43,073 nucleotides of DNA. Origin: Candidatus Woesearchaeota archaeon (GTDB lineage: Archaea > Nanobdellota > Nanobdellia > SCGC-AAA011-G17 > ARS1403). The position numbers and the translations under genes are program-made. The stretch lies in contig JACOZQ010000009.1 of NCBI GenBank assembly GCA_016181275.1, forward strand, positions 1-43,073, written 5' to 3'. Below, one piece after another: positions 1 to 39,244 of this stretch. The notes under the pieces are model-generated. The model was given only the letters and a program-made list of their open reading frames with translations, was not told where the DNA came from and ran no database searches. Position 1 is the first letter of the stretch. Every line of letters starts with the position of its first letter.

Positions 1-3000
1 CTTCCAAGAATTAATGTGCTGGATTTTTTAAATGTCTTTTGATTCCAGTCAAAGCTGACATCGAAAGGAACTTCAGCATTTTCCTCTCCGATTATTTGGA
101 TTTTCCAAGCGACATCGCATCTATCTCCATATTTCATATTATTACATCCTGAGAATTCAATGTCATTCAGCTTAACAGTATCAGGATCTAATCCAAATAC
201 TTTTTGGAATAATGGCTTGTCTCCTCCGCAGCTGCTCCATTGAGCTACACTTCCAGGAATATTGCACTTGTCAAAGCAACTACAGCCGTCAACGTCATCG
301 CATTGCACATCGCATAAATCCAATTGCGTTCTCAAATTATCGCTCGGTCTGGAATACAAGCAGATCTCCTTGCTGTACTCTGAGCTGAATTTAGTCCAGT
401 CAGCAGAATCAATTTTTCCATTATTATCAAAGTCAGCTCTTGAATCAAAATTAGAATCTATTCCAGAATAAGTATTATATATAGTAGCAAAATAAACAAA
501 GTCAGAAAAGTCAATTACAGTATCCTGGTTAAAGTCAAAATTATTTATCTCGCTGCATCCTATTTGCTGTATTATTTGTGGCTGGCCGGGAACAGAGACA
601 GATTTGACAGTGACAGAGAATGCTGCTTCGCCAGATGCACCTCTTGAATCAGCAGCCCTAATTTTTATATTATAAACTCCAACATCTTTCTGGTACGCAC
701 CCCATCTTATGTTTCCAAAAGAATCCATGCTCATTCCGAAAGGAGCTTGAACTAAAGAATAAGATAAAGCATCATTATCAATATCATCAGCACTTGCTTT
801 AAATAATAAAACTTCTCCAGCAAATAATTCTTTGTTTGATATGCTTAAAGAAGGAGGATTATTAAGGACAGTTATAGCAAATCCTTTATCAGCTATTCCA
901 CCTCTTCCGTCGCTGGCTCTAACATTAACATTATGACTTCCTATTTGGCTGCTAGCTGATTTCCAGCTGATCAATCCATTGCTATTTATTGACATTCCAG
1001 CTGGAGCTTGTAACAAAGAATAAGCTAAAACATCGCCATCAGGATCACTGGCAGGAACTTGATAATTAAAATTGCTTTGAGCATTTATCTGCTGATTTGC
1101 TATGCTTGAGATTGTTGGATTATTATTGCATGCCTGTGTATTGCAGTTTTGAGTTTCAGTAGCAGCTCCAATACAGCTGGCTCCGCCGCAATAAGGAGCA
1201 GGGTTGTTGCATGTTCTAGCTCTAGTCTGAGTTCCTCCGCCGCAAGAAGCAGAGCACGAGCTCCATGAGCTCCAAGCATTCCAGCCGCCATTAACACTAA
1301 GTCCTTCATCAGTTTGTGCATTGCAATTGTCATCTATATTGTTGCATGTTTCAGTAGCACCTGGTTTAATATTGGCATTGGAATCAGAGCAGTCAAGATT
1401 ATTGCTTGAGTAACCAGCTGGCTGTGTGCATGCTTGAATCGCCGTTGATGATCCATATCCATCATTGTCCAGGTCTTTGTAATAAGTATTTTGAGCACAT
1501 AAAACAGTAAAAGTAAATCCTCTTCCAACATTGACTTTTGAATCAGAAACAGTAACTAAAATGCTATAAGCTCCAACCTGGCTGCTTGTTGGTGTGAAAG
1601 TTATCAAGCCATTATTATTAATAGACATGCCAGCAGGATTCTGTGATAAAGAATAGCTCAAAATATTTCCATCAGGGTCGCTAGCTTGAACTTGATAGCT
1701 AAAAAGATTTTTCTCTGTGACTTGTTGATTTGGAATGCTTGAAACAACAGGAGGATTATTTGGCGGTGGATTTACTATTATCGTAAAGCTGGTTTGAGAA
1801 TTTCCACCTCTTCCGTCGCTGACTTTTACAGTAGCAGTATGGCTTCCTAACTGGCTTGATGAAGGAATCCAGACAATGTTCCCGCCACCTCCAATAGTCA
1901 TTCCAGCTGGAGCCGATACTAAAGAATAACTCAACAAGTCTAAATCAGGATCTGAGCCAGTTGCAGTCAAGCTGAATGCGCTGTTCAAAGTTACCTCTTT
2001 ATTAGCAATCGGATTTATGCTTGGATTTCTATTGCATAAAGGCCTGTCATACTCGACAGCAAAAGCAACAAAGTCAGAAAAATCAACAACGCTGTTAGAA
2101 TTGAGATCATATCTTGTTTGATATCCTGCATCTGCAGAAGTTTTTCCAAAAGCAGCAGAAAATAAATTCCAATCATCAATGTCAATTCTTTTATCATTGT
2201 CATAATCCAAATTTCTATTTTCGGTGCATCCAGAAGCAGCTTTGGAAGCAGGAGCAGAAAGTGTACTGACAGTTATACTAAAGCTAGCTTGAGTTGCTCC
2301 TCCTTTATTATCATCAACGCTAACAGTAACACTATAGCTTCCGGCTTGACTTGTAGATGGTGTCCAGCTGATCAATCCTGCACTTGTCATCAACATGCCA
2401 CCAGGAGCCTGTGTTAAAGAATAAGAAACAGGATCATTATTAGGATCGCTGGCAGAAACTTGATAGCTAAACGGTTGACCGATAGTAATAGCTTGATTGC
2501 TAATCGTGTTTATAACAGGATTGCTGTTGCACGTTTGCGTATTGCAGCTCTGTGTTTCATAACTAGGTCCAGAACACTCAGCACCTCCGCACGCAGGAGC
2601 AGGATTGTTGCATGTCCTTGTTCTGCTTTGAGTTCCTCCGCCGCAAGAAGCAGAGCACGAGCTCCATGAGCTCCAAGCATTCCAGCCGCCATCAGTAGGA
2701 TAGCAAGTCGGCAAACAACTCCCATCTCCATAACAGCCGGCGCTACAATATGAATTAGTACCAACCCATTCATAGCAAGGATCTGAATCCCCATCAGTTC
2801 TGCAGTCAAATTGTTGCCAATAATCAGAATAATAGCCAGTTCCATATCTGCATTCTCTTCCTCCACCAGTGCATTCATTAGAGCAAGTAGTAACACATAA
2901 AGGGCTGTTAGATTCTTTTACTCTCCAGTAAATTGTTTTTTCTGCACTTACATAGCACCACTCAACCCAATTACTACTGCTGCATTTTCCATTCCCCATC

Positions 3001-3104
3001 CACACTCCATCGCTACAACCATTTGCTTGAGCTGGAGTCTCTGGGAAATCAACTATTGAAAAAAGAGAAATTACAAAGAAAATGAAAAATATTTTTAGTT
3101 TCAT
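1..3104 (-). CDS. Giant secreted surface/adhesin-like protein, 3'-partial (C-terminus beyond the left edge; about 1034 codons in the window). Contains a signal peptide, a Cys-rich head, 2 thrombospondin type-1 repeats, 5 He_PIG/cadherin-like Ig repeats and 2 dockerin-like Ca-loop modules.
   Basis: It is absent from the ORF track because this frame has no stop in the window; a stop would have produced a listed ORF starting at 3104. Hand translation from ATG 3104 gives [27 protein letters not shown]... I checked that the frame is open over 3104 to about 2000 and 600 to 1. TSR motifs: [54 protein letters not shown] (2690..2529) and [54 protein letters not shown] (1289..1128). There are five ASDP(D/N)xDxLSYSLxQAPxGM repeats. 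Paired DxDxDxxID loops lie at about 2207..2047 and 545..375. Its ATG overlaps the TGA of the upstream gene (ATGA at 3101..3104). Confidence 0.85.
1228..1291. repeat. Perfect 64-nt intragenic repeat, copy A (core of TSP1 repeat 2)
   Basis: 1228..1291 is identical to 2629..2692 by direct base-by-base comparison. The flanking bases diverge. It encodes ...[21 protein letters not shown]. Confidence 0.9.
2629..2692. repeat. Perfect 64-nt intragenic repeat, copy B (core of TSP1 repeat 1)
   Basis: Identical to 1228..1291. The repeat also shows up in the off-frame track ORFs 1100..1333 and 2510..2896, which share [20 protein letters not shown]. Confidence 0.9.
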
Positions 3105-3457
3105 AATTTTTGGCATTCCTCCCTTAAGAAGTCATTTATAATTTTATCGCATAAATCTAAATTTCCTTTTTTTGCATTTTCAAAGTAATAATTATCTTCG
3201 CATAATTGTTTTGATTCCTGCTCAAAATTTTCGCAGAGCTCAATGTTTTCAGCAGAATTTCTTAATAATTGGTTCTCAGAAAAAGAAAGATCATCAGATT
3301 CATCAGGAGAAAAGCTTCCAAAGCAAATTTTCTCTCCATCAACGTCAGCATAATTTTCGCATTTCTCAACAGCAGCATTTCTCTCACAGCCCTGTCCAGT
3401 TACAAATACTAAAGTAATAAAGATTGCAAATATCCAAAATTTATTTTTTATTTTCAT
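3101..3457 (-). CDS. Small secreted Cys-rich acidic protein (possible lipoprotein)
   Basis: N-terminal signal [24 protein letters not shown], with a Cys directly after the hydrophobic core (lipobox-like). There are 8 Cys in 118 aa. ATGA start/stop overlaps occur at both ends (3454..3457 and 3101..3104). Confidence 0.7.
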
Positions 3458-4848
3458 TTTATATTAATATCAACATTCCCGCAGCCATTAGCATCTTGGC
3501 ACACAAATCCCGCGACAACAGCAATATCAACCCCGCTGGGAACTTCAATTCTCTGCCCAGCATCGTATCCGTAAATTATAACAGCAGGATCACATGTATT
3601 TATCGGAGGATTATTCTCGTCAGCAACCCATCGTCCGAGCTCATTGCAAACTTCCTCTCCTCTAATGCATATTCCGCTTCCAGTTCTTCTCTGGCCTAAT
3701 CTGCATTGGCAGCCAATTTCATCAATTTCATTATTGCAGTTGTTATCAATGCCGTCGCAGATCTCATTCATCCCAGGATTAATATTGGCATTGTCATCTC
3801 TGCAGTCGTCAACTTTATACCCGGCAAGCAGGCATAAATTATTTGATGCATAATTATCCAAGTCCTTGTCGCAAAAGCTGTCGCATCTCAAATCAGCAAT
3901 GCCGTCGCAGTTATTGTCTATATTATCATATCCAGTTTCAGCTTCGCAACTTTCAGTAGCAGCAGGATTAATATTTTCATTTGCATCATTGCAGTCAATT
4001 CCACCAGTGAAAATAATATCATCATAGCCATCCCCATCTTTATCAAATTCATTTGCCAGTAAAGTGCATTCGCAGTAGCTCGAAAATAATGGATCATAAT
4101 CCTTTGGAAAAACATTTTCTTCAACAAGGCCGAAAACAGAATTAGAGCAGATCCCGCTACCGATTTTTTTAGAATATCCCGGATAGTTGCATCCCAGCTG
4201 CTCTTGCAAAATTATTTCCTGCTCACCTTCTTCAATAATGATCTCTTCTTCAAATCTTTCTTCTCCGGCTGAAACACACTCTCCGATTTTGCCTTTGCAT
4301 TCTTCCAAGTTTTCATTGGTGCAGCAAATCTGATTATTGCTTGGGCATCCGCAAAATCCAGGATATGAACAGCTGCTGATAATCTCTCCTTCCGAGCAAT
4401 AATAAGGTCTGTCAGCAATATTGTTTGTAACAAATCCAGCACATTGATTGTTTTTAATTAACGTCCCATTATAATCGCAGCTCAGCAGATAATCTTGGCT
4501 CAAAGTAAAATCTTTTCTGACAGCATTTTTCCTCTCAGCATCCCAGATTACAAAGTAATAATCTCCAGGCTCAAAAATTCCAGTTCCAATCTGGCTGAAT
4601 GCTATTCTTGCCTCGCAATTAGCCACATTATTACAATTTAAAGGTACAGTTCCAATAAATCTCTGAATTGGATCAGCTCCCTCAAAGTATTTTCCTTTGT
4701 AAAATTCGACATTGTCGCTATATCCTTTATCGGAAATCTTAATCAAAATTCCTCCTTTAATGAATGAAAAATTAACTGAGAAATTAACCTGAGCTAAAGA
4801 AAGCGGTACGATTAGCAAAATTAAAATTAAAATCAGTTTCTTATACAA
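3454..4848 (-). CDS. Secreted Cys-rich protein with MopE-like 'putative metal-binding' CxDxxxxInPgxxExCDGIDNnC repeats
   Basis: The track ORF is 3454..4935. I prefer the TTG start at 4848, which is preceded by AGAGGTGGGA (SD-like, 4851..4860) and yields (M)YKKLILILILLIVPLSLAQ, a clean signal peptide. Motifs: DCNDANENINPAATESCEAETGYDNIDNNCDG and DCRDDNANINPGMNEICDGIDNNCNNEIDE. Confidence 0.75.
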   Translation of the reverse strand: MYKKLILILILLIVPLSLAQVNFSVNFSFIKGGILIKISDKGYSDNVEFYKGKYFEGADPIQRFIGTVPLNCNNVANCEARIAFSQIGTGIFEPGDYYFVIWDAERKNAVRKDFTLSQDYLLSCDYNGTLIKNNQCAGFVTNNIADRPYYCSEGEIISSCSYPGFCGCPSNNQICCTNENLEECKGKIGECVSAGEERFEEEIIIEEGEQEIILQEQLGCNYPGYSKKIGSGICSNSVFGLVEENVFPKDYDPLFSSYCECTLLANEFDKDGDGYDDIIFTGGIDCNDANENINPAATESCEAETGYDNIDNNCDGIADLRCDSFCDKDLDNYASNNLCLLAGYKVDDCRDDNANINPGMNEICDGIDNNCNNEIDEIGCQCRLGQRRTGSGICIRGEEVCNELGRWVADENNPPINTCDPAVIIYGYDAGQRIEVPSGVDIAVVAGFVCQDANGCGNVDINIK

Positions 4849-4988
4849 AATCCCACCTCTATTTTTATCATAAAGATTGCAACCTTCAGATAAATTTATA
4901 CATATTATATCATATAAAAAACTTTCTAATATCACCGCAAGTTAGCAAAGAATGCAGGTAAAAGATATTTAAGCTTAAAAAAATAAAA

Positions 4989-5528
4989 TCACTGAACTTG
5001 CTCTCTCAAACAATTTCTCACTTCAATTATTTTTTTCAGCTCATTGCAAAAATTAGCTCCCTTTGAAGTTTCAACTTTTGGAACAACCTCGATCTTTTTA
5101 ATTTCCCTGTACCATCTCTCTTCAGAATCTTCTTCAGCTTTTTCTTCTGGGCGGGCAACTCCGATTTCCTTAACTTCATAAGCATTCAATCTAGTTCCGT
5201 ATAGAAAAGTGCCAACTTCGCTTCCTTCATCGAATAAAACACTGACTACAAAATTTTCCTTGAAGTCAATATTCTTCTCATTTCTCACTCTAACAAGGAT
5301 TGCATTTTTTATTTTATCAGGTCCACTGTCAGAAGGATTGCAGTAGGCATCCTCAATAAAGAATTTTACCTCGTTGCAGCTTGAAAATCTTTCGAATGAT
5401 TCCTGTCCTTTTTCCAGACTTTTTTCAATTGATTTTCTCGAGAAGCTTACTAAAACACTTGTCAAGGCAACAACCAAGACAATCAACAAAACTGTGGATA
5501 TTATCGGCGAGATTCCTTTCTTTTCCAT
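4989..5528 (-). CDS. Archaeal type IV pilin-like protein (class III signal peptide)
   Basis: The N-terminus MEKKGISPIISTVLLIVLVVALTSVLVSF matches the archaeal prepilin/DUF1628-type KG|ISPIIxTVLLI processing site followed by a hydrophobic helix. Confidence 0.8.
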   Translation of the reverse strand: MEKKGISPIISTVLLIVLVVALTSVLVSFSRKSIEKSLEKGQESFERFSSCNEVKFFIEDAYCNPSDSGPDKIKNAILVRVRNEKNIDFKENFVVSVLFDEGSEVGTFLYGTRLNAYEVKEIGVARPEEKAEEDSEERWYREIKKIEVVPKVETSKGANFCNELKKIIEVRNCLREQVQ

Positions 5529-5567
5529 GACAATCTTTAAAAGTCTTTAATATTTAATAGTTTTCAT

Positions 5568-5642
5568 GGGCCTATAGTTTAGTCTGGATAAAACATTCGG
5601 CTTCGGACCGAAAGATCTGGGGTTCAAATCCTCATAGGCTCG
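5568..5642 (+). tRNA. tRNA-Arg (anticodon UCG)
   Basis: Cloverleaf folded by hand: acceptor GGGCCTA/TAGGCTC (one G-U pair), D stem GTTT/AAAC, anticodon stem TTCGG/CCGAA with loop CTTCGGA, T stem TGGGG/CCTCA with loop TTCAAAT, discriminator G. No CCA is encoded. Confidence 0.85.
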
Positions 5643-5832
5643 ATTTAATTTTATAAAATCTTTCTAAACAAATAATCTATGAGGAATAACAATAAATGGA
5701 AAAATACATTTCATAATTAGCTTCAGAATATAATTGGAAAGAAATAGAGATGTTCAAACCTTTACTTGGATTGATGAGAATTCGGAGAGATTATAGAAAT
5801 AATTAAAAACTTGATAAATCACAATTTATATT

Positions 5833-5905: not shown

Positions 5906-6103
5906 ATGATATTTAACATACAGGATTACAAGGAAAATTTGGAAGTGTTTGAAAAAAGAATAGAATTATTAATTGGAAGTAAGTTGAAATTAAATAATAA
6001 AATTATAAATGCAGTTGCAGTGCAAGATGCAGCGAGATCAAAAATAAAAGGATGGGATGGCACAAAAGAAATCAGAAAATGGAGAGAAAGAAAAGCAAGC
6101 TAA
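5906..6103 (+). CDS. Putative antitoxin (VapB-like partner of the PIN protein)
   Basis: A 65-aa ORF immediately upstream of, and overlapping by 47 nt, a PIN-domain gene. It has a basic C-terminal tail GWDGTKEIRKWRERK. The assignment is by context only. Confidence 0.5.
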   Translation: MIFNIQDYKENLEVFEKRIELLIGSKLKLNNKIINAVAVQDAARSKIKGWDGTKEIRKWRERKAS

Positions 6104-6521
6104 TAATCTTGTCATCGATAGTTCTGTTGTAATCAAGTGGTTTTCTGATGAAGAAGATACAAAAAAGGCATTAAAAATAAGAGAGGATTTCTTGAATGGA
6201 AAAAATATAATTGCTGTGCCAGATATACAAATCTATGAAATAGCTAATGCATTAAGGTATAATAAACATATCACAAAAGAAGAAGTTATAAAATACGCAG
6301 ACAGTTTAATTGATATAGGCATAATTATTGTAATCCCAACAGCAGAAATAATAAAATCCTCAATAGAAATTGCTTTTGAGTATAATATTACAATTTATGA
6401 TGCGTGCTTCATATCACTAGCAAAAGATTTAAACTTTGATTTCATAACAGCTGATGAAAAGCTTTATCAAAAAATAGAAACATTAAAATTTGCTAGACTA
6501 TTAAATAATTTAAAAATATAA
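6057..6521 (+). CDS. vapC: PIN-domain ribonuclease toxin (VapC-like)
   Basis: LVIDSSVVIKWF (first acidic residue), IYEIANAL, IYDACFISLA and FITADEKL match the conserved PIN acidic quartet layout. The size is about 150 aa. Confidence 0.7.
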   Translation: MAQKKSENGEKEKQANNLVIDSSVVIKWFSDEEDTKKALKIREDFLNGKNIIAVPDIQIYEIANALRYNKHITKEEVIKYADSLIDIGIIIVIPTAEIIKSSIEIAFEYNITIYDACFISLAKDLNFDFITADEKLYQKIETLKFARLLNNLKI

Positions 6522-7950: not shown

Positions 7951-8641
7951 ATGCATTATTCTCTCTTTCTTGTCCAATAGTTGTACTAGGCCCATGACCA
8001 GGAAAAATCCACAAATTTTTATTCAAAGAAAGAATTTTTTTAAAACTTTCAAGTAATTTTTTATAAGAAAAATTCCCACCACCCAAAGATCCGGCAAAAA
8101 TTAAATCTCCTGAAAACAAAAAATCTTCAACTAAAAATGTTACAGAATCGGCAGTATGTCCGGGGGTTGAAATTCTTTTTATACTGTATCCAAGAAAATT
8201 AATTTTATTTTTCTTCTCGACTTTTATTTTAAGTTTATCTTCGATTTTTCCAAGGCCATCAGTGTGATCATCATGTCCATGTGTTAATAAAATAAATTTC
8301 GCTTTCAATTTCAGTTCTTCAATTTTTTCAATTACAAAATCAGCATCTCCACAAGTGTCGATGATGGCGCATTTATTTCCTTTGACAAGCAGATAAGAAT
8401 TAACATTGCCTTTATAAAAAGGAACTTGTATTCTTTCCACTCTAAGCTCATTAGTTTTTCTGAAAAAATTATATTCTCTAGGATAATATTTCTTATCTCT
8501 GATGTTTTTCAAGGCTGTTAAATTTAAATTAAGTTCTTTGCAAATGTCTTCTATTTTTTCAGTTTTAATTTTTTTATTCGAACCCTTCATCGCTTTAGAT
8601 ATTATGTCTTCATAATTGTCTTCTAAATCCAACCCAACCAC
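7937..8641 (-). CDS. Metallo-beta-lactamase-fold hydrolase (glyoxalase II-like)
   Basis: Motifs LLTHGHDDHTDG (HxHxDH), TPGHTADS and a C-terminal PGHG. It converges on proS with a 14-nt overlap. The true start may be the internal MKGSNKK. Confidence 0.75.
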   Translation of the reverse strand: MVGLDLEDNYEDIISKAMKGSNKKIKTEKIEDICKELNLNLTALKNIRDKKYYPREYNFFRKTNELRVERIQVPFYKGNVNSYLLVKGNKCAIIDTCGDADFVIEKIEELKLKAKFILLTHGHDDHTDGLGKIEDKLKIKVEKKNKINFLGYSIKRISTPGHTADSVTFLVEDFLFSGDLIFAGSLGGGNFSYKKLLESFKKILSLNKNLWIFPGHGPSTTIGQERENNAFSNF

Positions 8642-10068
8642 CTCAAAAGTTTTCTAAAAAGATTCTCTTTCTCAGGAAATTCGAATTCAGGCTCTTCAGG
8701 AATGACAGTAGCAGCATCCTCTTTTCCTTCAAGTTCTATCTCCTCATCAAGAATTTTAGCATCAGCATTTTTTCCATTTTCAAATTCATTAATTTCAATT
8801 TCAGCATTCTCCATTTCATAGAGCTCGAATTTATCGCCAATCAACAATTCATCTTTTGCCTCACTACCAAAGCTCTCAATAAGTTTAATTTCAGATTTAT
8901 AAGTAAAATCTCCATTGAGCTCGGGTACGCTTAAAATCCAGCTCAATTTTTTTTCTTCTCTGGGTTTTAGCAAGATTACTTTACTATTATCTCCAACTAT
9001 TCCAGGAGCATTGGTTATGTAAACAAGTGTAGATAAATAATAATTCTGCAAATTTTTAACCGAGACTTCAAGCGGAACCAAGCTACTTCCTCTGACTTTA
9101 TCATAAACTACATTAGCATCGAGCTCAATTAATGGAAAGATTTTATCTCCTCTTTCAATTATGCTTGTATTTAATTCGAGGTTTTTATTTTTTAATCCGA
9201 CTTTTACAGCCTTCCATGTATATTCAACGCTTGGTTCGTTAGACCCAACACTTTCAGCAAGTTTCACATGCCCAGTATCGACCCATCCGTACTGGCCGAA
9301 TGTTACATCAAATGGAATCCAGCCATATCCAGGGAAATAAACCTCAGCCCAAGCATGTGGAGCCCATCCCTCTTCAACAGCATCACTGTAAGCAATTCCT
9401 ACGACGTATCTAACAGGAATATTCATGCTTCTCATAAATGAAACAAACAAGTTGGTTATCTCATCACAAACACCATATCTATTCTCCAATACCCAGCTGC
9501 TTTTCTGTACAGCATCCTCTGTCAAAGTGCTCAAATTATATTCGACATTTGTCCTTACCCATTCAGCAATTTTAAAAGTGGTTTCATATAAAGTGTCGCT
9601 TCCAGCAGAAATTTCCAGTGCTTTCTCTCTGATAGCGGGAGTAATATCCGTAAACTCGCTTTCCTTTACATATTTTTTCAGTTCATTAGACAGCTCAAAG
9701 TTCACAAGAGGGACATCAGTTGGTATTTGAAATATCCTATTCCAGACTTTTACTTTAGCATCATATCCAAAGCTTAATTTTTCAAATTCATCATCCCATC
9801 TATAATCAATAGAGTTTCTTTGGACAATGCTTGCACTTGGATTATGTTCTAGCTTCAAATCGATCACGTCTTCTCTATAAGAACTCTTTGGAAAAAGTTT
9901 AAGGTCGGCAGAAAAATATTCCAATCTAGAATTTGAATTTTGAAAATCCAGCTCGACATCGCCGTCTATTCTTACTTCAACAATTTGAAAATCTAAGTCA
10001 CTCTGAGCAAAAACAATAGGAAAAAATAATAATACAATTAAAATAATGAAATTTTTTTTAAGAGACAT
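8623..10068 (-). CDS. Secreted transglutaminase-like cysteine protease-fold protein
   Basis: Signal peptide MSLKKNFIILIVLLFFPIVFAQS. Transglutaminase core YGVCDEITNLFVSFMRSMNIPVRYVVG ... HAWAEVYFPGYGWIPFD (Cys-His-Asp). Confidence 0.75.
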   Translation of the reverse strand: MSLKKNFIILIVLLFFPIVFAQSDLDFQIVEVRIDGDVELDFQNSNSRLEYFSADLKLFPKSSYREDVIDLKLEHNPSASIVQRNSIDYRWDDEFEKLSFGYDAKVKVWNRIFQIPTDVPLVNFELSNELKKYVKESEFTDITPAIREKALEISAGSDTLYETTFKIAEWVRTNVEYNLSTLTEDAVQKSSWVLENRYGVCDEITNLFVSFMRSMNIPVRYVVGIAYSDAVEEGWAPHAWAEVYFPGYGWIPFDVTFGQYGWVDTGHVKLAESVGSNEPSVEYTWKAVKVGLKNKNLELNTSIIERGDKIFPLIELDANVVYDKVRGSSLVPLEVSVKNLQNYYLSTLVYITNAPGIVGDNSKVILLKPREEKKLSWILSVPELNGDFTYKSEIKLIESFGSEAKDELLIGDKFELYEMENAEIEINEFENGKNADAKILDEEIELEGKEDAATVIPEEPEFEFPEKENLFRKLLRWLGWI

Positions 10069-12920: not shown

Positions 12921-15900
12921 TTATCTTTTAAGCCTAATTTTACCTTTATCGTCTTCTATTAGATTATTTTTTATTAAATAGCTAGTCGCTTCTTCTACCT
13001 TATCCCTTATCTTATTTCCCGTTCTATTGTTATGATAAATTACTCTTGCTATGTCCGAGACTATTGCTTCTTTAGTCATACTAAAAGAGTTCTTCAAAAT
13101 ATCGATTATTGCCCCTGCTAATTCTTCCTTTGGGATTAAAATAAATGGTCTATCGGTTTCTTTTGAAATTCTTACTGCACAAAGGGTTTCAATTGGTTCA
13201 AGAGAAATGGTGTTTTGATATATGTTGATTCCTTTTTCTTTCTTTAGCTCTTTTATTGTTTCATCGAATAAAACTTCTATTCTTCTACCTAATTTTTGAA
13301 TTCCTATAGAAATTAGTACACGCTTATATAATAGCCCTTTCTCAATGGGACTTTCTATTTCTAAAATTTCAATCATTCTTTTTTTAATGAGAGAAATAGC
13401 AGAATAATTATTAAGATTACCATATCCATCAAACTCTAAATTCATTCTGTGTAATGGGAGTTCTGCAATTTTATATTTCTTGTACTTATTTTTTAAGTCA
13501 ATTTCATTAAAATCTTCTTTTTCTTCAATCTCTAAGAAATGTGTTTTTTGTTTATACTCTAAAATTCCTTTAGATCTTAAGATTTCCTTTACTTTATTTT
13601 TTATTCTTTCAAGCTCATACTCTTTATTATTCAGCCAATCATCAGACCAGATCCTAATCATGTTCCAACCTAAATTTTCTAAAACCATCTGTCTAATTTT
13701 ATCTCTATCTCTTGCAAATCTTGAAGAGTGATATTGAGAGCCATCGCATTCAACACCCAATATATACTCTCCTAGTTTTTTTGGATGCTTGATTGCTAAA
13801 TCAATTCGATAACCTGAAAAACCAACTTGACAACTTACATCAAAACCCCCATTTATTAGTTCTTGGTATACTGCTTCTTCAAAAGAAGAATCGAATTGAA
13901 GCCCTTCTGTTTTCTGTAGAAATTTAGTAAAATCTTTATTTTTAGTAAAATCTAAATAATATTTTAGATATCTTACACCTTCAGCATTGATTTTATCTTC
14001 ATCCAAATCCTCAGGAAGCATAGAAGAGACAACAACCGTTTTAAATCTTGAACGAGTTATAGAAACATTAAGTCTTTTGTATCCCCCTTCTTTATTTAAT
14101 GGACCAAAATTATAACTAAATTTCCCAGAAGAATCTTTACCATAACCAATACTTAAAATAATTATATCTCTTTCATCTCCTTGTACTGTTTCAAGATTTT
14201 TTATAAATAATTCTTCATTATGAAGATCAATGGATTCCTCAATTTGTATATCTGCAATTTGAAACTCTTCTCTAATAGCATTTTCTTGTGCCATACTAAA
14301 TGCTATAATCCCTAATGATTTTTTTGGAAATTTCTTTTTTAAGTCAAGATAAATCTTAACTGTCTCTCTTGCTTCAACTCTATTTTTTCTAGATTTTCCT
14401 CTATCATATACCCCGCTTTTAACATATACAAAATCTAGTCCACTATCATCTTTTTCTCTAGGATTTGGGAATGTTATTAAACGATTTTCATAGAAAAATC
14501 TATTTGAAAATGAAATAAGTGTTTCGTTATTGCTCCTATAATGCCAGTCCAAAGATTTTGTTCTGAATTTCGTTATTGATTCACTTAAGAAACTCTCTAA
14601 ATCTTCAATTTCCTCTTCGGTTTCATCTTCTTGACTTAAAAAAAATGAAGTAGGTGGAAGTTGTTGAGTGTCACCCATAATAATAGCTTGTTTTGCTCTA
14701 ATTAAACAAGGAACCGCATCTTCCGGCATAATTTGTGAAGCTTCATCAAAAATTACCACATCAAATTTTATGGATTTGGGATTAATATACTGGCTTACGG
14801 TTAGAGGACTCATCATAAAACAAGGCTTTAATGCAAAAGCCAAATCAGGGATTTGTTCAAGAAGATCTCTAATCGGCTTTAATTTCCTCTTTTTTTCATT
14901 TTCTCTTTTAAGAATTGAAACTTCACTTTGACCACTACCGGAATAATTGTCTTTTGGTTGTCTACTTTCTACAGATTCCATAATTTTATATCTGAAAACT
15001 TCCCTAACCTTCAAATCATCATTCCTAAATTTTGCTATAAGTCTTTTTGGTGAAAATTTATTAGTCTTCTTTAAGATCTCTTCTAAAACTTGTAAATAAT
15101 ATGACTTAAGAAAGACTTTACTAAATTCACTCTTCTTTGTTTCCGCAAGATATTTAGTGATAAAATTATTTATTTCAGCGTCCAATTTAATAAAATCTTC
15201 TTTAAATGCTAGAACATCATTTATATTCTTAAACTGAGAATTTAATTTCTCTAAAACTTGCAGAATACCCTGAAACTTATCTAAACCGGTTAATAATTTT
15301 TTTTCAAAGAAATTTTCGATTTCAGTTAAAACAGAATAAAAATCATCAAACATTTGTCTTTGATTATGGTTAACTAATAATTGCATAATTGCATAATTTT
15401 TTGTCTTTGAAAGCTTATCCGAAATCTCAAATAAAGAAACTAAATCTTTACAATATTTATTTAATTTGGATATGGCTGTTAAATTCTTACAGTCCCCTAC
15501 GACCTCACACTTTTTCTTGTTTTTAGAAATAAGATCGGATAATTTTTTGTCTAGTTTTTCATAATTATTCTTTTTCTCAAAAAGAGAGATATAATCAGAA
15601 TGACTTATTTTTACTTTAGCATAAGCGTCTATTTCTTTCTTGCAAGCCTTATATTCAGAATTCAATAATCTTGAAAATAACGATGTCTCTTTGAATACTT
15701 TTTCTATTTTTTTAGAATTTAGTTCATCAATAAATGAATCTTTTGTTTTTGTAGTAATCTCGCTTCTTATATCCTTCAATTCTGAAAGCAGATTGAATAA
15801 TTCATCTATCAAAGAAGCATACTCTTCAAAATCTTTCGAGACTAAAAAGGAAAACTCCTTATTAAATTTAAATGAATGAATCTTCTCGTTTAATTTCTTT

Positions 15901-17438
15901 AGTAGATTTATATCGCTAACTAATTTTATTTCTATTCCTGTTTCTATTTTTAACTTATTTAAAAGATCATTTAATACTTTGTTACTGTCATTGAATTTCT
16001 TTAGACAAGAATTAAATCGATTTATTGATAGAGCAGTGTTTTTATCTTTTTGATAATTGAAATACACATTTTCCAAAGGATTGCCTAATAAATTGAAAGA
16101 AGAATTAAATCTTGTTAGTTTATCCAACATTATAGAAAATTCTTTTTTATTTAGCGAAACTGTTCTTTTTAGGGGATGGTCAATAATTTCATTTTTGTCT
16201 AATTTTGCTAATTCCCCTCTAATATCATAAACTGATAAATCCCATGGGGAATGTTTCTCACATAAAAATTTATAAAATTCGTTGATTTCTTTTTGAGACC
16301 CTAGGTAAGATGATATGTCTTCCCTTTTCATTGCAGAAGGAATTATAGGAGATGTTTGAAGTTCTTTCATTAGCTGTTTTATGATTTCTCTCTTATTTCC
16401 TTTATAATTATGTAAATTCAGACAGTATCTTCCTAATCCTACTTCATCAAGTCTCTTTTGAACTACATTTAAGGCAGCCATTTTCTGGCTTACAAAAAGA
16501 ATTTTTTTATTCTTTTCAATCAATGCAGAAATAATGTTTGCAATGGTTTGACTTTTACCTGTACCAGGAGGGCCTTGCAACACAAAAGTAACTCCTGCTT
16601 TTGCTAACTCTATTGCTCTTTTTTGTGAAGAATCAGCAGGTAAAACATCAATGCTATTCGCATCGTCAAATTCGTCTCTTTGTGATTCTGAAATCTCATC
16701 TTGTAAGGCATCTCTATCTCCGACATAAGCTTTAATCAAAGGACTATCCTTAACAAGCTTTTCGTTAAAGCTTAAATCTTCATACATAATGAATTTTTGA
16801 TAGGAAAATATGTCCAAATAAATATCTTCAGTAATTTTCCAATCTTTCATGCCTTCTAATTCATTTTTTAAATAAGATATGTATTCAGTAGACGTCTGAC
16901 CATCGAAATTTTTTATATCAATACCAAAATCATGTAATAATTTTTCTTTTAGAGCGGGATTTAATTTTATCTCTCCCGAATTAGAGTCAATTTCAAATCT
17001 GTGAGTGTCTTTGCTGACAACAGATAACCTATTCATTTCAATAGGATATAAAAAAATAGGAGCTTCTAAAAATAATTCAGAGTCATCTGATTCTTTATAC
17101 TTCAGAATCCCCAAGGAAACAAAACAAGTACTTATTCCTAATTCTTGGAAATTTTCCTTTGCTTTTAAGTAAAGTGCATATAATTTTTTATCAGTTATTT
17201 CTTTATCTTCAGAACATAGCCATTGCCTATCTTTGGCACTTTCTTTTTTATCTTTAAGAATAAACACATTTTGTTCGTGATCCAAATCTTCTATTATTTT
17301 TGAAAAAGATGGGGAGGTTATCTTAATAGATTTTGATTTTGTAAATCTGTATCTTACGAGATTATTTCTTTTAGACAAGTCAATAAGTTTTTTCTTCCAA
17401 TAATCTATTTTTTTATCAATGACTTTAGTTAAATCCAT
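12921..17438 (-). CDS. 1505-aa DUF4011 / Upf1-like SF1 helicase / Vsr(DUF559)-like endonuclease / DUF3320-type protein
   Basis: N-terminal DLSKRNNLVRYR (DUF4011 hallmark). Walker A at VLQGPPGTGKSQTI, motif II at VIFDEASQ, then VQGDERDIIILS and LNVSITRSR (AAA_12). Nuclease core GYRIDLAIKHP...GVECDGSQYHSSRFARDRDKIRQMVLENLGWNMIRIWSDDW. Confidence 0.8.
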   Translation of the reverse strand: MDLTKVIDKKIDYWKKKLIDLSKRNNLVRYRFTKSKSIKITSPSFSKIIEDLDHEQNVFILKDKKESAKDRQWLCSEDKEITDKKLYALYLKAKENFQELGISTCFVSLGILKYKESDDSELFLEAPIFLYPIEMNRLSVVSKDTHRFEIDSNSGEIKLNPALKEKLLHDFGIDIKNFDGQTSTEYISYLKNELEGMKDWKITEDIYLDIFSYQKFIMYEDLSFNEKLVKDSPLIKAYVGDRDALQDEISESQRDEFDDANSIDVLPADSSQKRAIELAKAGVTFVLQGPPGTGKSQTIANIISALIEKNKKILFVSQKMAALNVVQKRLDEVGLGRYCLNLHNYKGNKREIIKQLMKELQTSPIIPSAMKREDISSYLGSQKEINEFYKFLCEKHSPWDLSVYDIRGELAKLDKNEIIDHPLKRTVSLNKKEFSIMLDKLTRFNSSFNLLGNPLENVYFNYQKDKNTALSINRFNSCLKKFNDSNKVLNDLLNKLKIETGIEIKLVSDINLLKKLNEKIHSFKFNKEFSFLVSKDFEEYASLIDELFNLLSELKDIRSEITTKTKDSFIDELNSKKIEKVFKETSLFSRLLNSEYKACKKEIDAYAKVKISHSDYISLFEKKNNYEKLDKKLSDLISKNKKKCEVVGDCKNLTAISKLNKYCKDLVSLFEISDKLSKTKNYAIMQLLVNHNQRQMFDDFYSVLTEIENFFEKKLLTGLDKFQGILQVLEKLNSQFKNINDVLAFKEDFIKLDAEINNFITKYLAETKKSEFSKVFLKSYYLQVLEEILKKTNKFSPKRLIAKFRNDDLKVREVFRYKIMESVESRQPKDNYSGSGQSEVSILKRENEKKRKLKPIRDLLEQIPDLAFALKPCFMMSPLTVSQYINPKSIKFDVVIFDEASQIMPEDAVPCLIRAKQAIIMGDTQQLPPTSFFLSQEDETEEEIEDLESFLSESITKFRTKSLDWHYRSNNETLISFSNRFFYENRLITFPNPREKDDSGLDFVYVKSGVYDRGKSRKNRVEARETVKIYLDLKKKFPKKSLGIIAFSMAQENAIREEFQIADIQIEESIDLHNEELFIKNLETVQGDERDIIILSIGYGKDSSGKFSYNFGPLNKEGGYKRLNVSITRSRFKTVVVSSMLPEDLDEDKINAEGVRYLKYYLDFTKNKDFTKFLQKTEGLQFDSSFEEAVYQELINGGFDVSCQVGFSGYRIDLAIKHPKKLGEYILGVECDGSQYHSSRFARDRDKIRQMVLENLGWNMIRIWSDDWLNNKEYELERIKNKVKEILRSKGILEYKQKTHFLEIEEKEDFNEIDLKNKYKKYKIAELPLHRMNLEFDGYGNLNNYSAISLIKKRMIEILEIESPIEKGLLYKRVLISIGIQKLGRRIEVLFDETIKELKKEKGINIYQNTISLEPIETLCAVRISKETDRPFILIPKEELAGAIIDILKNSFSMTKEAIVSDIARVIYHNNRTGNKIRDKVEEATSYLIKNNLIEDDKGKIRLKR

Positions 17439-17446
17439 GTTATTAC

Positions 17447-17593
17447 CTACTTAACCTCTTTCTTTCTAGGCGTATTCCAATAAGGTGATTTACATTTTGG
17501 GCATACCTTTGGCTCTTCAATAGTTGTTTCTCGAGGAACCCATTTATGCCCGCAACGTTCGCAAACATAGCCTTCTAATTTAACTTTTCCCAT
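17447..17593 (-). CDS. 48-aa zinc-ribbon protein (below the ORF-track size cutoff)
   Basis: Hand translation: MGKVKLEGYVCERCGHKWVPRETTIEEPKVCPKCKSPYWNTPRKKEVK*. It has CxxC...CxxC. The stop lies 8 nt upstream of the helicase ATG on the same strand. Confidence 0.6.
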   Translation of the reverse strand: MGKVKLEGYVCERCGHKWVPRETTIEEPKVCPKCKSPYWNTPRKKEVK

Positions 17594-18990
17594 ATTGAAT
17601 AGTTATATTCTCTTTAGTATATAAGTTTTACTATCTTACTAACCGAAAGGTTTAAATACTTAATAGTATATTATTAATAGGTATATAGGTAATGATTATG
17701 GAACAACCGCAACCTTTCAGAAAAAAGAAAAGAGTATCAGATAAAAACCTTTCTCTTAGCCGCAAGATTAAAGGATATGCAATTTTAGCAAAGGGAGATA
17801 TGCCAATAGCAGTAAGTGAAGAAGAGTTCTTAATTCCCTCTCAAAGCTCTAATAAGAAGTATAAAGTAACTAATATTTCTGGATGGAATTGTGAATGTCA
17901 AGATTTCCAAAATAGACATAGTGATTGCAAGCATATTCACGCTATTAAGCTCTGGATTAAGTTAAGAGCAAAGCCAGAAATAGAAGACTTGGAAATAGAT
18001 ACAAATGAAGAAAAGTGTATCTACTGCAATTCTCTTAATATTGTAAAAAATGGAGCAAGAAAAACAGTTATAGAGAATAAGCAAAGATTCAAATGCAAGG
18101 ATTGCGAAAAGAGATTTGTTCTTGATCCTATAAAGAAAATCAAAGGTAATGGTAAAATAGTAACTTTAGCAATGGACTTATACTTCAAAGGATTATCACT
18201 AAGAGATATTTCAGATACATTATTTCAATTCTACAATTTAAGAGTTCATTTTGATACAATAAGAAGATGGATCAGCAAATACACACAAATAATGGATAAT
18301 TATACAAAAAATTTCAAACCAGAATTAAGCGACAAATGGCACGTTGATGAGCAGATGATAAAATCAAAGAAAGATTATATCTGGTGCTGGAATGTTCTAG
18401 ATAGCGAAACAAGATTTTTGATAGCAAATAATATAACAAGAGGCAGAGAGATTACAGACGCAAGAGCAGTATTGAAAATAGCAAAGGAAAACATAAAAGA
18501 AAATCCTAAAGAGATTGTTACAGATGGCTTATGGTCGTACAATAGAGCAATCAGGAAAGAATTTGTTACAAAAAGAACAAGTCCAAATGCTGTTCTTCAT
18601 TCAAGAAATGCAGGAATAGCAAAGAAACTTCTTAACAACAATATGGTTGAACGCTATCATAATGAATTTAGAGAATTCGACAAAGTAAGAAGAGGATTTA
18701 AGTCAGATGAAACAGCACAGCAATGGAATGATGCCTTTAGACTTTATCATAACTTCATTAAGAAACACATGGCTCTGAATGGAGCAACACCTTCTCAAGT
18801 AGCAGAAATAGACCTAGGATTAGGCAGAAACAGATGGTTAAGTCTGCTAAAACAAAGTCTTAATCACCCGAATACGACAAAAAAGGATGTAATTTTAAAA
18901 TGACCCTTTAATACGACAGAGAGCCATTTTCTATTTTAAAATTTATAAATTGCATAAGTACGCAAAAATATTTATACTAATAAAAGATAA
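17594..18990 (+). mobile_element. IS6-family-like insertion sequence; ends not resolved
   Basis: It contains the transposase gene below. I could not find convincing terminal inverted repeats in the AT-rich flanks; the only match is a weak TTAGTATA / TATACTAA at about 17614 and 18974. The coordinates are the maximal intergenic span. Confidence 0.35.
17692..18903 (+). CDS. Transposase: SWIM zinc finger, IS1-like zinc ribbon and IS6/IS240-type DDE domain
   Basis: SWIM motif CECQDFQNRHSDCKHIH. Zinc ribbon CIYCNS...FKCKDCEKRF. DDE residues: WHVDEQMI, IVTDGLWSY, NNMVERYHNEFREFDKVRRGFKS (the IS6-like E and K/R region). Confidence 0.75.
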   Translation: MIMEQPQPFRKKKRVSDKNLSLSRKIKGYAILAKGDMPIAVSEEEFLIPSQSSNKKYKVTNISGWNCECQDFQNRHSDCKHIHAIKLWIKLRAKPEIEDLEIDTNEEKCIYCNSLNIVKNGARKTVIENKQRFKCKDCEKRFVLDPIKKIKGNGKIVTLAMDLYFKGLSLRDISDTLFQFYNLRVHFDTIRRWISKYTQIMDNYTKNFKPELSDKWHVDEQMIKSKKDYIWCWNVLDSETRFLIANNITRGREITDARAVLKIAKENIKENPKEIVTDGLWSYNRAIRKEFVTKRTSPNAVLHSRNAGIAKKLLNNNMVERYHNEFREFDKVRRGFKSDETAQQWNDAFRLYHNFIKKHMALNGATPSQVAEIDLGLGRNRWLSLLKQSLNHPNTTKKDVILK

Positions 18991-34894: not shown

Positions 34895-34992
34895 GGGCCC
34901 GTAGCTCAGTTTGGATAGAGCACTAGCCTTCTAAAATAGTTTATTAAGAAGAAAGCTAGGGGTCGCGCGTTCAAATCGCGTCGGGCCCGCCA
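34895..34992 (+). tRNA. tRNA-Arg (anticodon UCU) with a 20-nt intron at the canonical 37/38 position and a genomically encoded CCA
   Basis: Acceptor GGGCCCG/CGGGCCC, D stem GCTC/GAGC, anticodon stem CTAGC (34923..27)/GCTAG (34955..59). There are 27 nt between the stem halves, which is the loop CTTCTAA plus an intron at about 34934..34953. The intron AGAAG pairs with the anticodon-loop CTTCT, leaving a 3-nt AAA bulge (BHB-like). T arm GCGCG-TTCAAAT-CGCGT, then G-CCA. Confidence 0.8.
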
Positions 34993-35051: not shown

Positions 35052-35124
35052 GGGCAGATACCGGAGTGGTTAACGGCGCCGCCTGCAGAGCGGTTATTCA
35101 TGGGTTCGAATCCCATTCTGCCCT
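35052..35124 (+). tRNA. tRNA-Cys (anticodon GCA)
   Basis: Acceptor GGGCAGA/TCTGCCC, anticodon stem GCCGC/GCGGT with loop CTGCAGA, T arm ATGGG-TTCGAAT-CCCAT, discriminator U (the usual Cys identity element). Confidence 0.85.
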
Positions 35125-38725: not shown

Positions 38726-39244
38726 ATGAATTATTATGGAAATTTGATCATAAGATTGGCAGTTCCTTTTATAATTAGTTATCAATTTTTAAACAAGATA
38801 TTTTACAATGCAACAATATATTTTCCATATTTTTTCATGAAGCTGATAAATTTTCAAGTAATAATGATCCGGCCTTATTTAGTAACTCAAAATAATTATA
38901 TAAGATTCAGTGAGGCATGTGCAGCAGTTTCAGCATATTTTCTTCTTTTATTGCTGATAGTTTTCACAATGGATATGAAATTAAAGGCAAGAACAAAAAT
39001 TTTCCTGATAGGATCTTTGATAATTTTTTCAGCAAACATGATAAGGATACTATTGCTAATTTTTATTCTAGAAAAAAAAGGTTTCAATGCATTCCAGCAG
39101 GTGCATGATGTTTTCTGGATTATATTTGGCTCAATTATAGTGGCTTTAACATGGATATTTTTAACTCGCTTTTATAAAATAAAATCAATCCCAATCTATA
39201 CAGATGTGAAATATTTACTAAAGCAAACAAAACTATTTAAATAA
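38726..39244 (+). CDS. Miniature exosortase/archaeosortase-family protein
   Basis: 172 aa and polytopic. It has the candidate catalytic pattern EAC(65)AAVS ... SANMIR(107)I ... VH(127)DVFWIIFG, with Cys-to-Arg spacing of about 40 residues, as in the exosortase/archaeosortase family. Confidence 0.55.
   Translation: MNYYGNLIIRLAVPFIISYQFLNKIFYNATIYFPYFFMKLINFQVIMIRPYLVTQNNYIRFSEACAAVSAYFLLLLLIVFTMDMKLKARTKIFLIGSLIIFSANMIRILLLIFILEKKGFNAFQQVHDVFWIIFGSIIVALTWIFLTRFYKIKSIPIYTDVKYLLKQTKLFK

Follow-up and report, generated by a model that had tools for sequence, protein, structure and literature searches.

Do four adjacent minus-strand genes at one end of a contig from a Candidatus Woesearchaeota archaeon of groundwater origin specify a dedicated cell-surface apparatus, or are they unrelated surface protein genes that lie next to one another? 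The window, by which we mean the whole stretch of DNA analyzed, is 43,073 nt of contig JACOZQ010000009.1 (assembly GCA_016181275.1), and the genes, here called A, B, S, and C, lie in it as follows.

5528..4989, minus strand: gene A, an open reading frame of 179 aa
4848..3454, minus strand: gene B, 464 aa from a TTG start
3457..3101, minus strand: gene S, 118 aa with seven cysteines
3104..1, minus strand: gene C, 1034 codons, open at the window edge

An earlier note on this DNA, made from the sequence alone, had placed four minus-strand open reading frames here, with ATGA start/stop overlaps at 3454-3457 (B/S) and 3101-3104 (S/C), and all of these positions are correct. Cysteine makes up 2.2% of the A protein, 6.9% of B, 5.9% of S, and 4.3% of C. 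The reading that we favor, with moderate confidence and from comparison of predicted proteins and gene neighborhoods, is that A, B, and C constitute a lineage-restricted, three-component cell-surface module, a pilin-anchored adhesin, of Woesearchaeales-type DPANN archaea.

Gene order in relatives argues for a linked set. When searches start from B, an A homolog (38-52% identity; 43-51% in the comparison with the A of the window, its four cysteines invariant) lies directly upstream in every locus that has upstream DNA, and a secreted dockerin-bearing protein of roughly 460-970 aa is encoded directly downstream; these downstream proteins share the end of C, namely a dockerin-like pair, a CDxxCxDxDGCxC knot, a beta domain, and the motif series DITGN...RFxC...CCPxGF. 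When they start from A, B is the next gene in 13 of 14 informative metagenome loci and in four of five loci from GTDB species representatives, and a dockerin-bearing C is present in all six metagenome contigs of sufficient length. Altogether A and B are neighbors in 15 or more distinct loci of Woesearchaeota and Nanoarchaeota metagenome-assembled genomes (MAGs) and metagenomes (one A-alone case is the exception), and the A/B and B/C gene pairs overlap in relatives.

This adjacency might be inherited gene order in close genomes, with the four genes encoding independent surface or secreted proteins that have no joint function. The window and loci L011, L012, and L015 do share a wider collinear backbone (genes for L15e, DHH, transglutaminase, lactamase_B, and prolyl-tRNA synthetase [ProRS]), S is not conserved, and A stands alone in one lineage. 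The cassette is, however, intact between entirely different flanks in L013, L016, L017, and L018. ProRS/lactamase/transglutaminase genes flank it in the window, L011, and L012, HEPN/NTase genes do so in L012, L016, and L018 (so that L012 has both), a permease gene in L017, and a cation ATPase gene in L013; thus its conservation extends beyond backbone collinearity. It has also been duplicated in tandem as a whole unit. Contigs L017 (9001-13163) and L005 (1-11695) are contiguous, the last genes of the former being the first genes of the latter, and together they show a marine Nanoarchaeota genome with two complete tandem A-B-C cassettes, which are followed by genes for a dockerin-like protein of 307 aa and for another protein of 1707 aa and preceded by a further dockerin-bearing C-like gene (L035:2-1309). 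One MAG carries two cassettes on two separate contigs. In addition, start/stop overlaps and a Shine-Dalgarno sequence within the coding tail of A imply cotranslation, and the three families are equally narrow in distribution and similar in size; joint inheritance without joint function is thus improbable.

The rarity of the three families is indeed similar, with ~28 clusters for A, ~23 for B, and 11 representatives for the C-terminal module of C. All named members come from Woesearchaeota, Nanoarchaeota, or Aenigmarchaeota, and in the A and B searches those with a source name are annotated as "hypothetical protein" or "putative metal-binding motif-containing protein". The earlier note had preferred a linked set to unrelated surface genes, and A-B-C synteny, duplication of the whole cassette, the A/B and B/C overlaps, and the matching narrow range all bear this out. 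Its expectation that the four genes would be syntenic in relatives holds for A-B-C, with different flanks and in tandem duplication, and fails for S.

The manner in which A is joined to B differs between the window and its relatives, and two features are needed to describe it.

4849..4988, minus strand: the A-B spacer of 140 nt, absent in most relatives
L011:7960-8010, L012:4470-4515, L013:7960-8010, and L019:7460-7510: Shine-Dalgarno sequence and start codon of B embedded in the A tail, compared with window 4849-5010

A-B coupling by overlapping start and stop is present in most relatives, where the Shine-Dalgarno sequence of B, GAGGTG (as GAGGTG-N5-TTG), and its TTG start fall within the last codons of A, which encode K-I-E-V-x-N-C. 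One DNA stretch there is evidently both the conserved C-terminal peptide of A and the initiation region of B, a built-in coupling of the two genes, and the window has lost it. Its A tail has the form GAAGTG...AATTGT with six extra codons, and the spacer then consists, in order, of a T4AT7 run directly after the A stop codon, AT-rich TATA-like stretches, and AAAATAGAGGTGGGATTTTG, which is a Shine-Dalgarno sequence plus the TTG start of B and so a second copy of the Shine-Dalgarno-start motif. Other unit-terminal genes of the window likewise have runs of at least six Ts within ~12 nt of their stop codons. In view of the T4AT7 run and the 140-nt TATA-like spacer, A possibly has its own transcript here; it may be separately terminated and is then probably more strongly expressed, or there may be read-through into B. 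B, S, and C, on the other hand, are by all appearances one coupled unit through their ATGA overlaps. The single translationally coupled operon of the earlier note is therefore supported by the overlaps for B-S-C; it does not extend to A in the window, given the 140-nt gap, the T4AT7 run, and the TATA-like spacer.

The A protein begins MEKKGISPIISTVLLI and has a class III signal peptide, MEKKG/ISPIISTVLL (the slash marks the predicted cleavage site). K3, G5, S7, and P8 are invariant in a five-sequence alignment (A1); in an alignment of 25 members K3, G5, and S7 each reach 90% conservation or more. A matches NCBIfam TIGR02537 (arch_flag_Nterm, the archaellin/type IV pilin N-terminal domain) with 26 bits against a cut-off of 20, as do 21 of the 25 family members above that cut-off, and it is below the cut-off of Pfam Pilin_N (PF07790; 16.6 bits against 25.2, profile positions 1-26 only). 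In the AlphaFold2 (AF2) model (pLDDT, its confidence score, 86) a long helix at the N-terminus (aa 8-41) leads into a beta-sandwich head, in which C51, C63, C161, and C173 are the four invariant cysteines of the family. The family proper comprises the ~28 clusters given above, beyond which similarity falls sharply to generic archaeal pilins. The passing TIGR02537 score and the helix-plus-sandwich model agree with the description of A as a class-III-signal pilin in the earlier note.

Among PDB folds the A model comes closest to ArlG/FlaG (5tuh) and to the type IV pilus of Pyrobaculum calidifontis (8fk7), with E-values of ~5e-3 to 1e-2, and these folds bring in a different view of the protein. 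A could be an ArlF/ArlG-like, membrane-anchored pseudopilin that forms a short stalk or an S-layer-associated anchor, and A-B-C would then be an envelope anchoring or spacing complex with no pilus. FlaG/ArlG and FlaF (5tuh and 5tug; probability 1.0, E = 5e-3) are the best Foldseek matches, ahead of a true pilus subunit; no assembly genes of the type IV filament (TFF) kind lie nearby; and the family sizes suggest about one A for each B, in contrast to abundant major pilins, which usually stand alone. Yet the signal of A is a textbook class III signal of the form [KR]G/[IV]SP[LI]I, A passes TIGR02537, the E-values of the fold matches are too weak to separate ArlG from pilins, and archaeal major pilins are typically encoded alone and away from core loci (PMC4858521). 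We give the pseudopilin a modest chance of being the correct description.

In the case of B, the protein has a Sec signal peptide and 32 cysteines among its 464 aa. An alternative GTG start at 4935 would give 493 aa, but the 464-aa form is preferred because relatives start at the equivalent TTG ("LLKK"). The signal peptide is followed by an immunoglobulin (Ig)-like beta-sandwich (aa ~25-116), a Cys-rich subdomain (~120-192), an acidic linker (196-218), two MopE motifs (~265-380), and a C-terminal beta domain; the motifs are of the MopE/TSP3-like form DxDxDG...DNNCD. Pfam Cu-binding_MopE (PF11617) matches in two stretches with 48.4 bits (cut-off 27), in accord with the earlier description of B as a MopE-motif, Cys-rich secreted protein. 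About 23 full-length homologs or clusters, 35-51% identical and with 34 invariant columns that are mostly Cys and Asp, were found in Nanoarchaeota, Woesearchaeota, and Aenigmarchaeota MAGs and in metagenomes, and the remaining matches share the MopE motif only. The AF2 model has a pLDDT of ~90 for aa 20-160, which drops below 80 by aa 170. No PDB fold matches the N-terminal domain below E = 1e-3, and there is no cohesin among the top 50 Foldseek matches. The idea that this domain is a hidden cohesin was accordingly rejected; its PDB matches are generic Ig-like folds (the best is SgrA, E = 3e-3).

The MopE motifs raise the idea of metal handling, that is, capture of copper or calcium by analogy with MopE of methanotrophs. 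Two "putative metal-binding" PF11617 motifs in B and one in C, the richness of all three proteins in Asp/Glu loops, and the fact that MopE (2vov) is the sole PDB sequence match of the B profile would all fit it. The match to 2vov, however, covers ~40 residues of an N-terminal motif at E = 0.022, and the copper site presumably lies elsewhere in MopE than in the part matched by B; homology to the copper-binding domain of MopE was thus not found beyond this short motif. PF11617, moreover, is present in more than 1000 unrelated modular surface proteins, the pilin, Ig, TSP1, and dockerin modules speak for a structural and adhesive role, and no transporter or redox gene is linked to the cassette, all of which make metal capture very improbable as the function of A-B-C.

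C is a large secreted modular protein with a Sec signal peptide. Its parts in the window are the following.

2529..2687, minus strand: TSP1 repeat 1, aa 140-192, Pfam TSP_1/TSP1_spondin
1128..1286, minus strand: TSP1 repeat 2, aa 607-659, best Pfam TSP_1 stretch 610-659, DNA repeat D3
603..2528, minus strand: five He_PIG/Big_9 Ig-like domains, aa 193-280, 358-445, 449-535, 660-747, and 748-834, interspersed with other modules
2040..2219, minus strand: dockerin-like module 1, aa 296-355, made up of two segments, each with a Ca loop and a helix; EF-hand_7 E = 1.2e-4
nt ~1305-1394, minus strand: MopE motif, aa ~571-600, Pfam 34.7 bits
363..548, minus strand: dockerin-like module 2, aa 853-914, its position kept in all C orthologs
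3..362, minus strand: start of the C-terminal module, a CDxQCxDxDGCxC Cys-knot plus beta domain, alignment A2

TSP_1 (PF00090) matches C in two stretches with 72 bits (cut-off 21.6), and both copies have the WSxWSxCSxxCGxG...C pattern. The corresponding DNA, window 1117-1291 and 2518-2692, is 81% identical over 175 nt, with an exact 64-mer that is found at double depth. He_PIG matches in five stretches (219 bits, Pfam), which correspond to DNA repeat families D1, D2, and D4. This TSP1/He_PIG middle part of C is lineage-specific; the orthologs differ from it, and two of them have a single marginal He_PIG-like domain. The C-terminal module is the constant part. It continues outside the window with DITGN...GRFRC...CCPxGY and a third dockerin-like module, and an exhaustive search of 1.84e9 sequences gave only the 11 representatives mentioned above at E ≤ 1e-3. 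A 222-aa protein, P0207, overlaps the last 32 aa of C at 100% identity and adds 190 aa that contain the DITGN, GRFRC, and CCPLGY motifs, the third dockerin-like module, and a Cys-containing tail; full-length C should thus be ~1224 aa, so that "giant", the word used in the earlier note, is better replaced by large. Signal peptides are present in both B and C, and no C-terminal transmembrane segment or sorting signal was seen in either.

Window positions 1-5700 were recovered at ~100% identity in four independent groundwater metagenome runs, and the sequence is therefore real and clonal and no assembly artifact. In all four assemblies the Logan contig breaks coincide exactly with the two internal TSP1 repeats of C; the Logan contigs that encode the exact S protein (L001-L004) reach into C only as far as the TSP1 repeat, 441 nt in, and a 6825-nt contig from run X2 spans 5.5 kb beyond the window start. 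A low-depth joint, 1295->2671, inside C in two runs was set aside as a probable graph artifact, since the 1375 nt that it skips are not a multiple of three and differ from the repeat offset of 1401 nt, and since one side of it is only 24 nt.

Are the dockerin-like modules of C real, or might they be Asp-rich linkers? In full-length C the Pfam EF-hand and Dockerin_1 matches are weak (aa 298-348 and 856-903). When nine modules from C and its orthologs, which have one to four each, are aligned, the layout is two tandem segments of ~22 residues, and in each of them a 12-residue Ca-binding loop (D-x-[DN]-x-[DN]-G-x-[IV]-x-x-x-D) leads into a helix; the four Asp residues at positions 1 and 12 of the two loops are invariant. 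The profile of these modules (A5, which includes module 1) has the dockerin of cellulosomal Cel48 (2y3n_B) as its top PDB match, with E = 6.4e-11 over positions 3-59 of 61, and lower matches are to other cellulosomal dockerins and EF-hands. Type I Dockerin_1 (PF00404) matches seven of the nine modules; module 2 of the window reaches 23.4 bits in isolation (cut-off 22.9) and only 15.8 bits within the full protein, and for several modules EF-hand models score as well as Dockerin_1. The modules are also unusually rich in Phe (DFxDFLxFA). These hidden Markov model matches and the 2y3n_B match argue that they are real modules and not Asp-rich linkers.

Dockerins bring to mind enzyme display of the cellulosome kind or substrate capture like that of a "bindosome", and the Sulfolobus bindosome does use class III signal peptides (bioRxiv 10.64898/2026.04.22.720090). 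In A, B, S, C, and 10 neighbor proteins of relatives, however, no catalytic, carbohydrate-binding, or solute-binding domain was detected, and neither the window proteins scanned nor the B fold includes a cohesin or scaffoldin. We consider this explanation highly improbable. The earlier note had seen no cohesin-like partner in the window, and the scan of 34 window proteins likewise gave no Cohesin match.

What has been observed directly is how the genes are ordered and overlap, which domains they encode, how the families are distributed, and that the cassette is conserved. Several further observations weigh against the reading that we favor. Cohesin is absent not only from the 34 window proteins but also from the 10 neighbor proteins of relatives and from the predicted fold of B. 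No prepilin peptidase, TFF ATPase, or platform gene was found in the 43-kb window, in which 30 other proteins were scanned, nor was a prepilin peptidase or TFF ATPase seen among the cassette neighbors of relatives. The fold matches of A are weak (E = 5e-3), and the top one, ArlG, is a non-pilus stator protein. A T7 run and a 140-nt spacer follow A in the window, where A and B-S-C may be transcribed apart, and the run search found no RNA run with the pilin gene A. Most relatives are of one order, and part of the synteny could thus be inherited gene order. Finally, in one Woesearchaeota lineage (L015:9001-9522, the same as L020 and L027) A is alone beside ProRS with GatB downstream, and contigs L008-10 (L008:1-1561) have B-C with only a degenerate A tail (..KKGKKVKNC and stop) upstream, always at the contig end. 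One of the latter contigs is from the same sample series as L015; L015 and L008-10 may represent one genome in which A and B-C are split, or there may be an assembly break at a duplicated A. The A-alone lineage and L008-10 indicate that parts of the cassette can be encoded apart.

S deserves separate mention, since it had been counted as a member of the operon. It has a signal peptide and a lipobox-like stretch, ...VTGQG-C-ERN, which fits relaxed lipobox rules only, and it overlaps both neighbors by ATGA. A word-indexed search of 5.8e9 proteins found only S itself, and distant homologs could escape a search of this type. S is absent from L011, L012, L008, L016, L017, and L019, and B is joined directly to C in relatives other than L005, which has a positional analog of 72 aa with LLMGAG-C-EKD; the two have in common a signal peptide and G-x-G-C-E-[KR], and their pairwise E-value is 0.019. 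With no homolog and this one analog, S is, as far as these comparisons go, confined to its lineage and no constant part of the cassette. It is possibly a local add-on, a lipid-anchored accessory.

Upstream of A the DNA is very compact.

5529..5566, minus strand: upstream region of A, 38 nt between the divergent tRNA-Arg(TCG) gene and the ATG of A

The tRNA-Arg(TCG) gene (5567..5643, plus strand) is divergent from A, and since only 38 nt separate the two they presumably have a common, very compact bidirectional promoter region. A TATA-like sequence, ATTAAATA, lies ~25 nt upstream of the ATG of A, a position that suggests a leaderless A mRNA.

Elsewhere in the window, a secreted protein of 481 aa with a transglutaminase core (8623-10068, minus strand) lies with lactamase_B, DHH/DHHA1, L15e, and ProRS genes in a backbone that is collinear with L011, L012, L015, and L017. 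A small open reading frame (5906-6103) overlaps the start of a PIN-domain gene (6057-6521). At 12921-18903 a gene whose 1505-aa product is a DUF4011/AAA_11/AAA_12 helicase that also has an MTES_1575 nuclease domain adjoins an IS240-family DDE transposase gene (17692-18903), and this region may be a mobile or defense-related insertion. A viral or mobile origin was also considered for A and was rejected, as there is no A relative among 2.9 million viral contigs and the A-B spacer is not repeated elsewhere in the window. The tRNA-Arg(TCT) gene (34895-34992, plus strand) was called at 98 nt, which is longer than a standard tRNA, and may hold an intron; tRNA-Cys follows at 35052-35124. A 172-aa protein (38726-39244, plus strand), whose gene adjoins that of a PAP2 phosphatase, scores 30.7 bits (cut-off 25.7) with the C-terminal half of the Exosortase_EpsH profile and may be an archaeosortase-like enzyme; no matching C-terminal sorting signal was seen in A, B, S, or C.

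How might a pilin-anchored adhesin of this kind be put together? Its processing, assembly, binding partners, and adhesive function can be sketched as follows. A would be cut after Gly5 by a class III signal peptidase and handled by type IV filament machinery encoded elsewhere, and would then either polymerize as a thin fiber or, by means of its N-terminal helix, stay membrane-bound as a stalk of the pilin kind. It would be the only membrane- or fiber-forming element, with S as a possible lipid anchor. B and C are predicted to be exported by Sec and, since neither has a membrane anchor of its own, would depend on contacts with other proteins to stay at the surface. B would be a disulfide-rich partner with a family-specific Ig-like N-terminal domain and calcium-type DxDxDG/DNNCD repeats, and the dockerin-like modules of C, together with its Cys-knot/beta C-terminal module, would act as a constant "plug" into the A/B scaffold or into another surface partner; B and this constant end could attach in a Ca-dependent manner to A or to each other. 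The N-terminal and middle parts of C, here two TSP1 and five He_PIG domains, appear to be exchangeable between lineages, and this variable Ig/TSP1 part would be the outward adhesin for a host cell or particle.

A more specific and more speculative proposal, to which we assign only a small likelihood, is that docking is cohesin-independent. The Phe-rich dockerin-like modules and the C plug would bind the A head or the Ig/Cys domain of B in a Ca-dependent manner, and swappable adhesive middles (TSP1, Ig, or other) on a pilin fiber would then make up a host-recognition organelle on which the partner specificity of episymbiotic DPANN archaea depends. If so, tandem duplication of the cassette would provide several specificities per cell.

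The theme of a pilin with an associated adhesin is a known one. Archaeal pilin genes are commonly found outside core TFF loci (PMC4858521), and archaeal TFF loci also come with large adhesin-like proteins rich in Ig domains (bioRxiv 10.64898/2026.04.22.720090). The cassette resembles archaeal TFF pilins and their adhesins (such as the Methanococcus Epd locus, and TFF systems 2 and 4, whose adhesins are PilY-like or Ig-rich) in the class III signal, in the helix plus beta-sandwich subunit, in having genes for large secreted Ig-rich proteins next to those for pilins, and in the location of pilin genes away from the ATPase/platform core. It differs in that no ATPase, platform, or peptidase gene is linked to it; no homology to PilY/DUF2341 or to the arCOG adhesins was detected for the B family or the C-terminal module of C; the C-terminal domain of A with its four invariant cysteines is a small family of its own; and in the literature searched dockerin-like modules were not found reported in such loci. 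The bacterial type IV pilus tip (PilY1/PilC plus minor pilins) is alike in logic only, a pilin-family protein being genetically coupled there to a large calcium-binding non-pilin adhesin; PilY1 is such an adhesin, presented on the pilus fiber, and the cassette has no sequence or fold relationship to it.

Non-cellulosomal dockerins are known in archaea (PMC9012536). Those of Archaeoglobus fulgidus and of anaerobic methanotrophic archaea (ANME) are, like those described here, duplicated Ca-loop/helix modules of ~60 residues on extracellular modular proteins of non-cellulolytic archaea, and their domain content also varies between close relatives (PMC9012536); in the present case, unlike those, no cohesin is encoded nearby or in the cassette, and the modules are Phe-rich with similar EF-hand scores. 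Hypervariable Ig modules are likewise known in archaea, and the VARTIG module of Thermococcales is, as here, archaeal, lineage-restricted, and built around a large secreted Ig-domain protein of variable content (PMC8416519). VARTIG has another gene order and other families and lacks a pilin, a MopE protein, and a dockerin, whereas in the cassette it is the middle of the last gene that varies, with A, B, and the C-terminus of C constant. With MopE and other PF11617 proteins B and C have in common the DCxDxxxxxxPGxxExCDGxDNxCDG motif above the Pfam cut-off, twice in B and once in C. This short motif (E = 0.022 to 2vov) is all that is shared, and the rest of B is confined to its ~23 clusters. Literature searches found no description of this three-family cassette, and the earlier note had also not recognized the combination as a described system. 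The new elements appear to be the dockerin-like modules and the MopE-motif partner, confined to one DPANN clade.

To our knowledge, little is known of how Woesearchaeota and other DPANN archaea become attached to a host or a particle, and almost none of these organisms has been cultivated. The cassette provides concrete, testable candidates for their attachment machinery and for determinants of host specificity, and it defines the boundaries of three uncharacterized families, namely the A head domain, the N-terminal domain of B, and the C-terminal module of C. If the dockerin-like modules do bind a non-cohesin partner within the cassette, the interaction repertoire of dockerins would be wider than has been thought.

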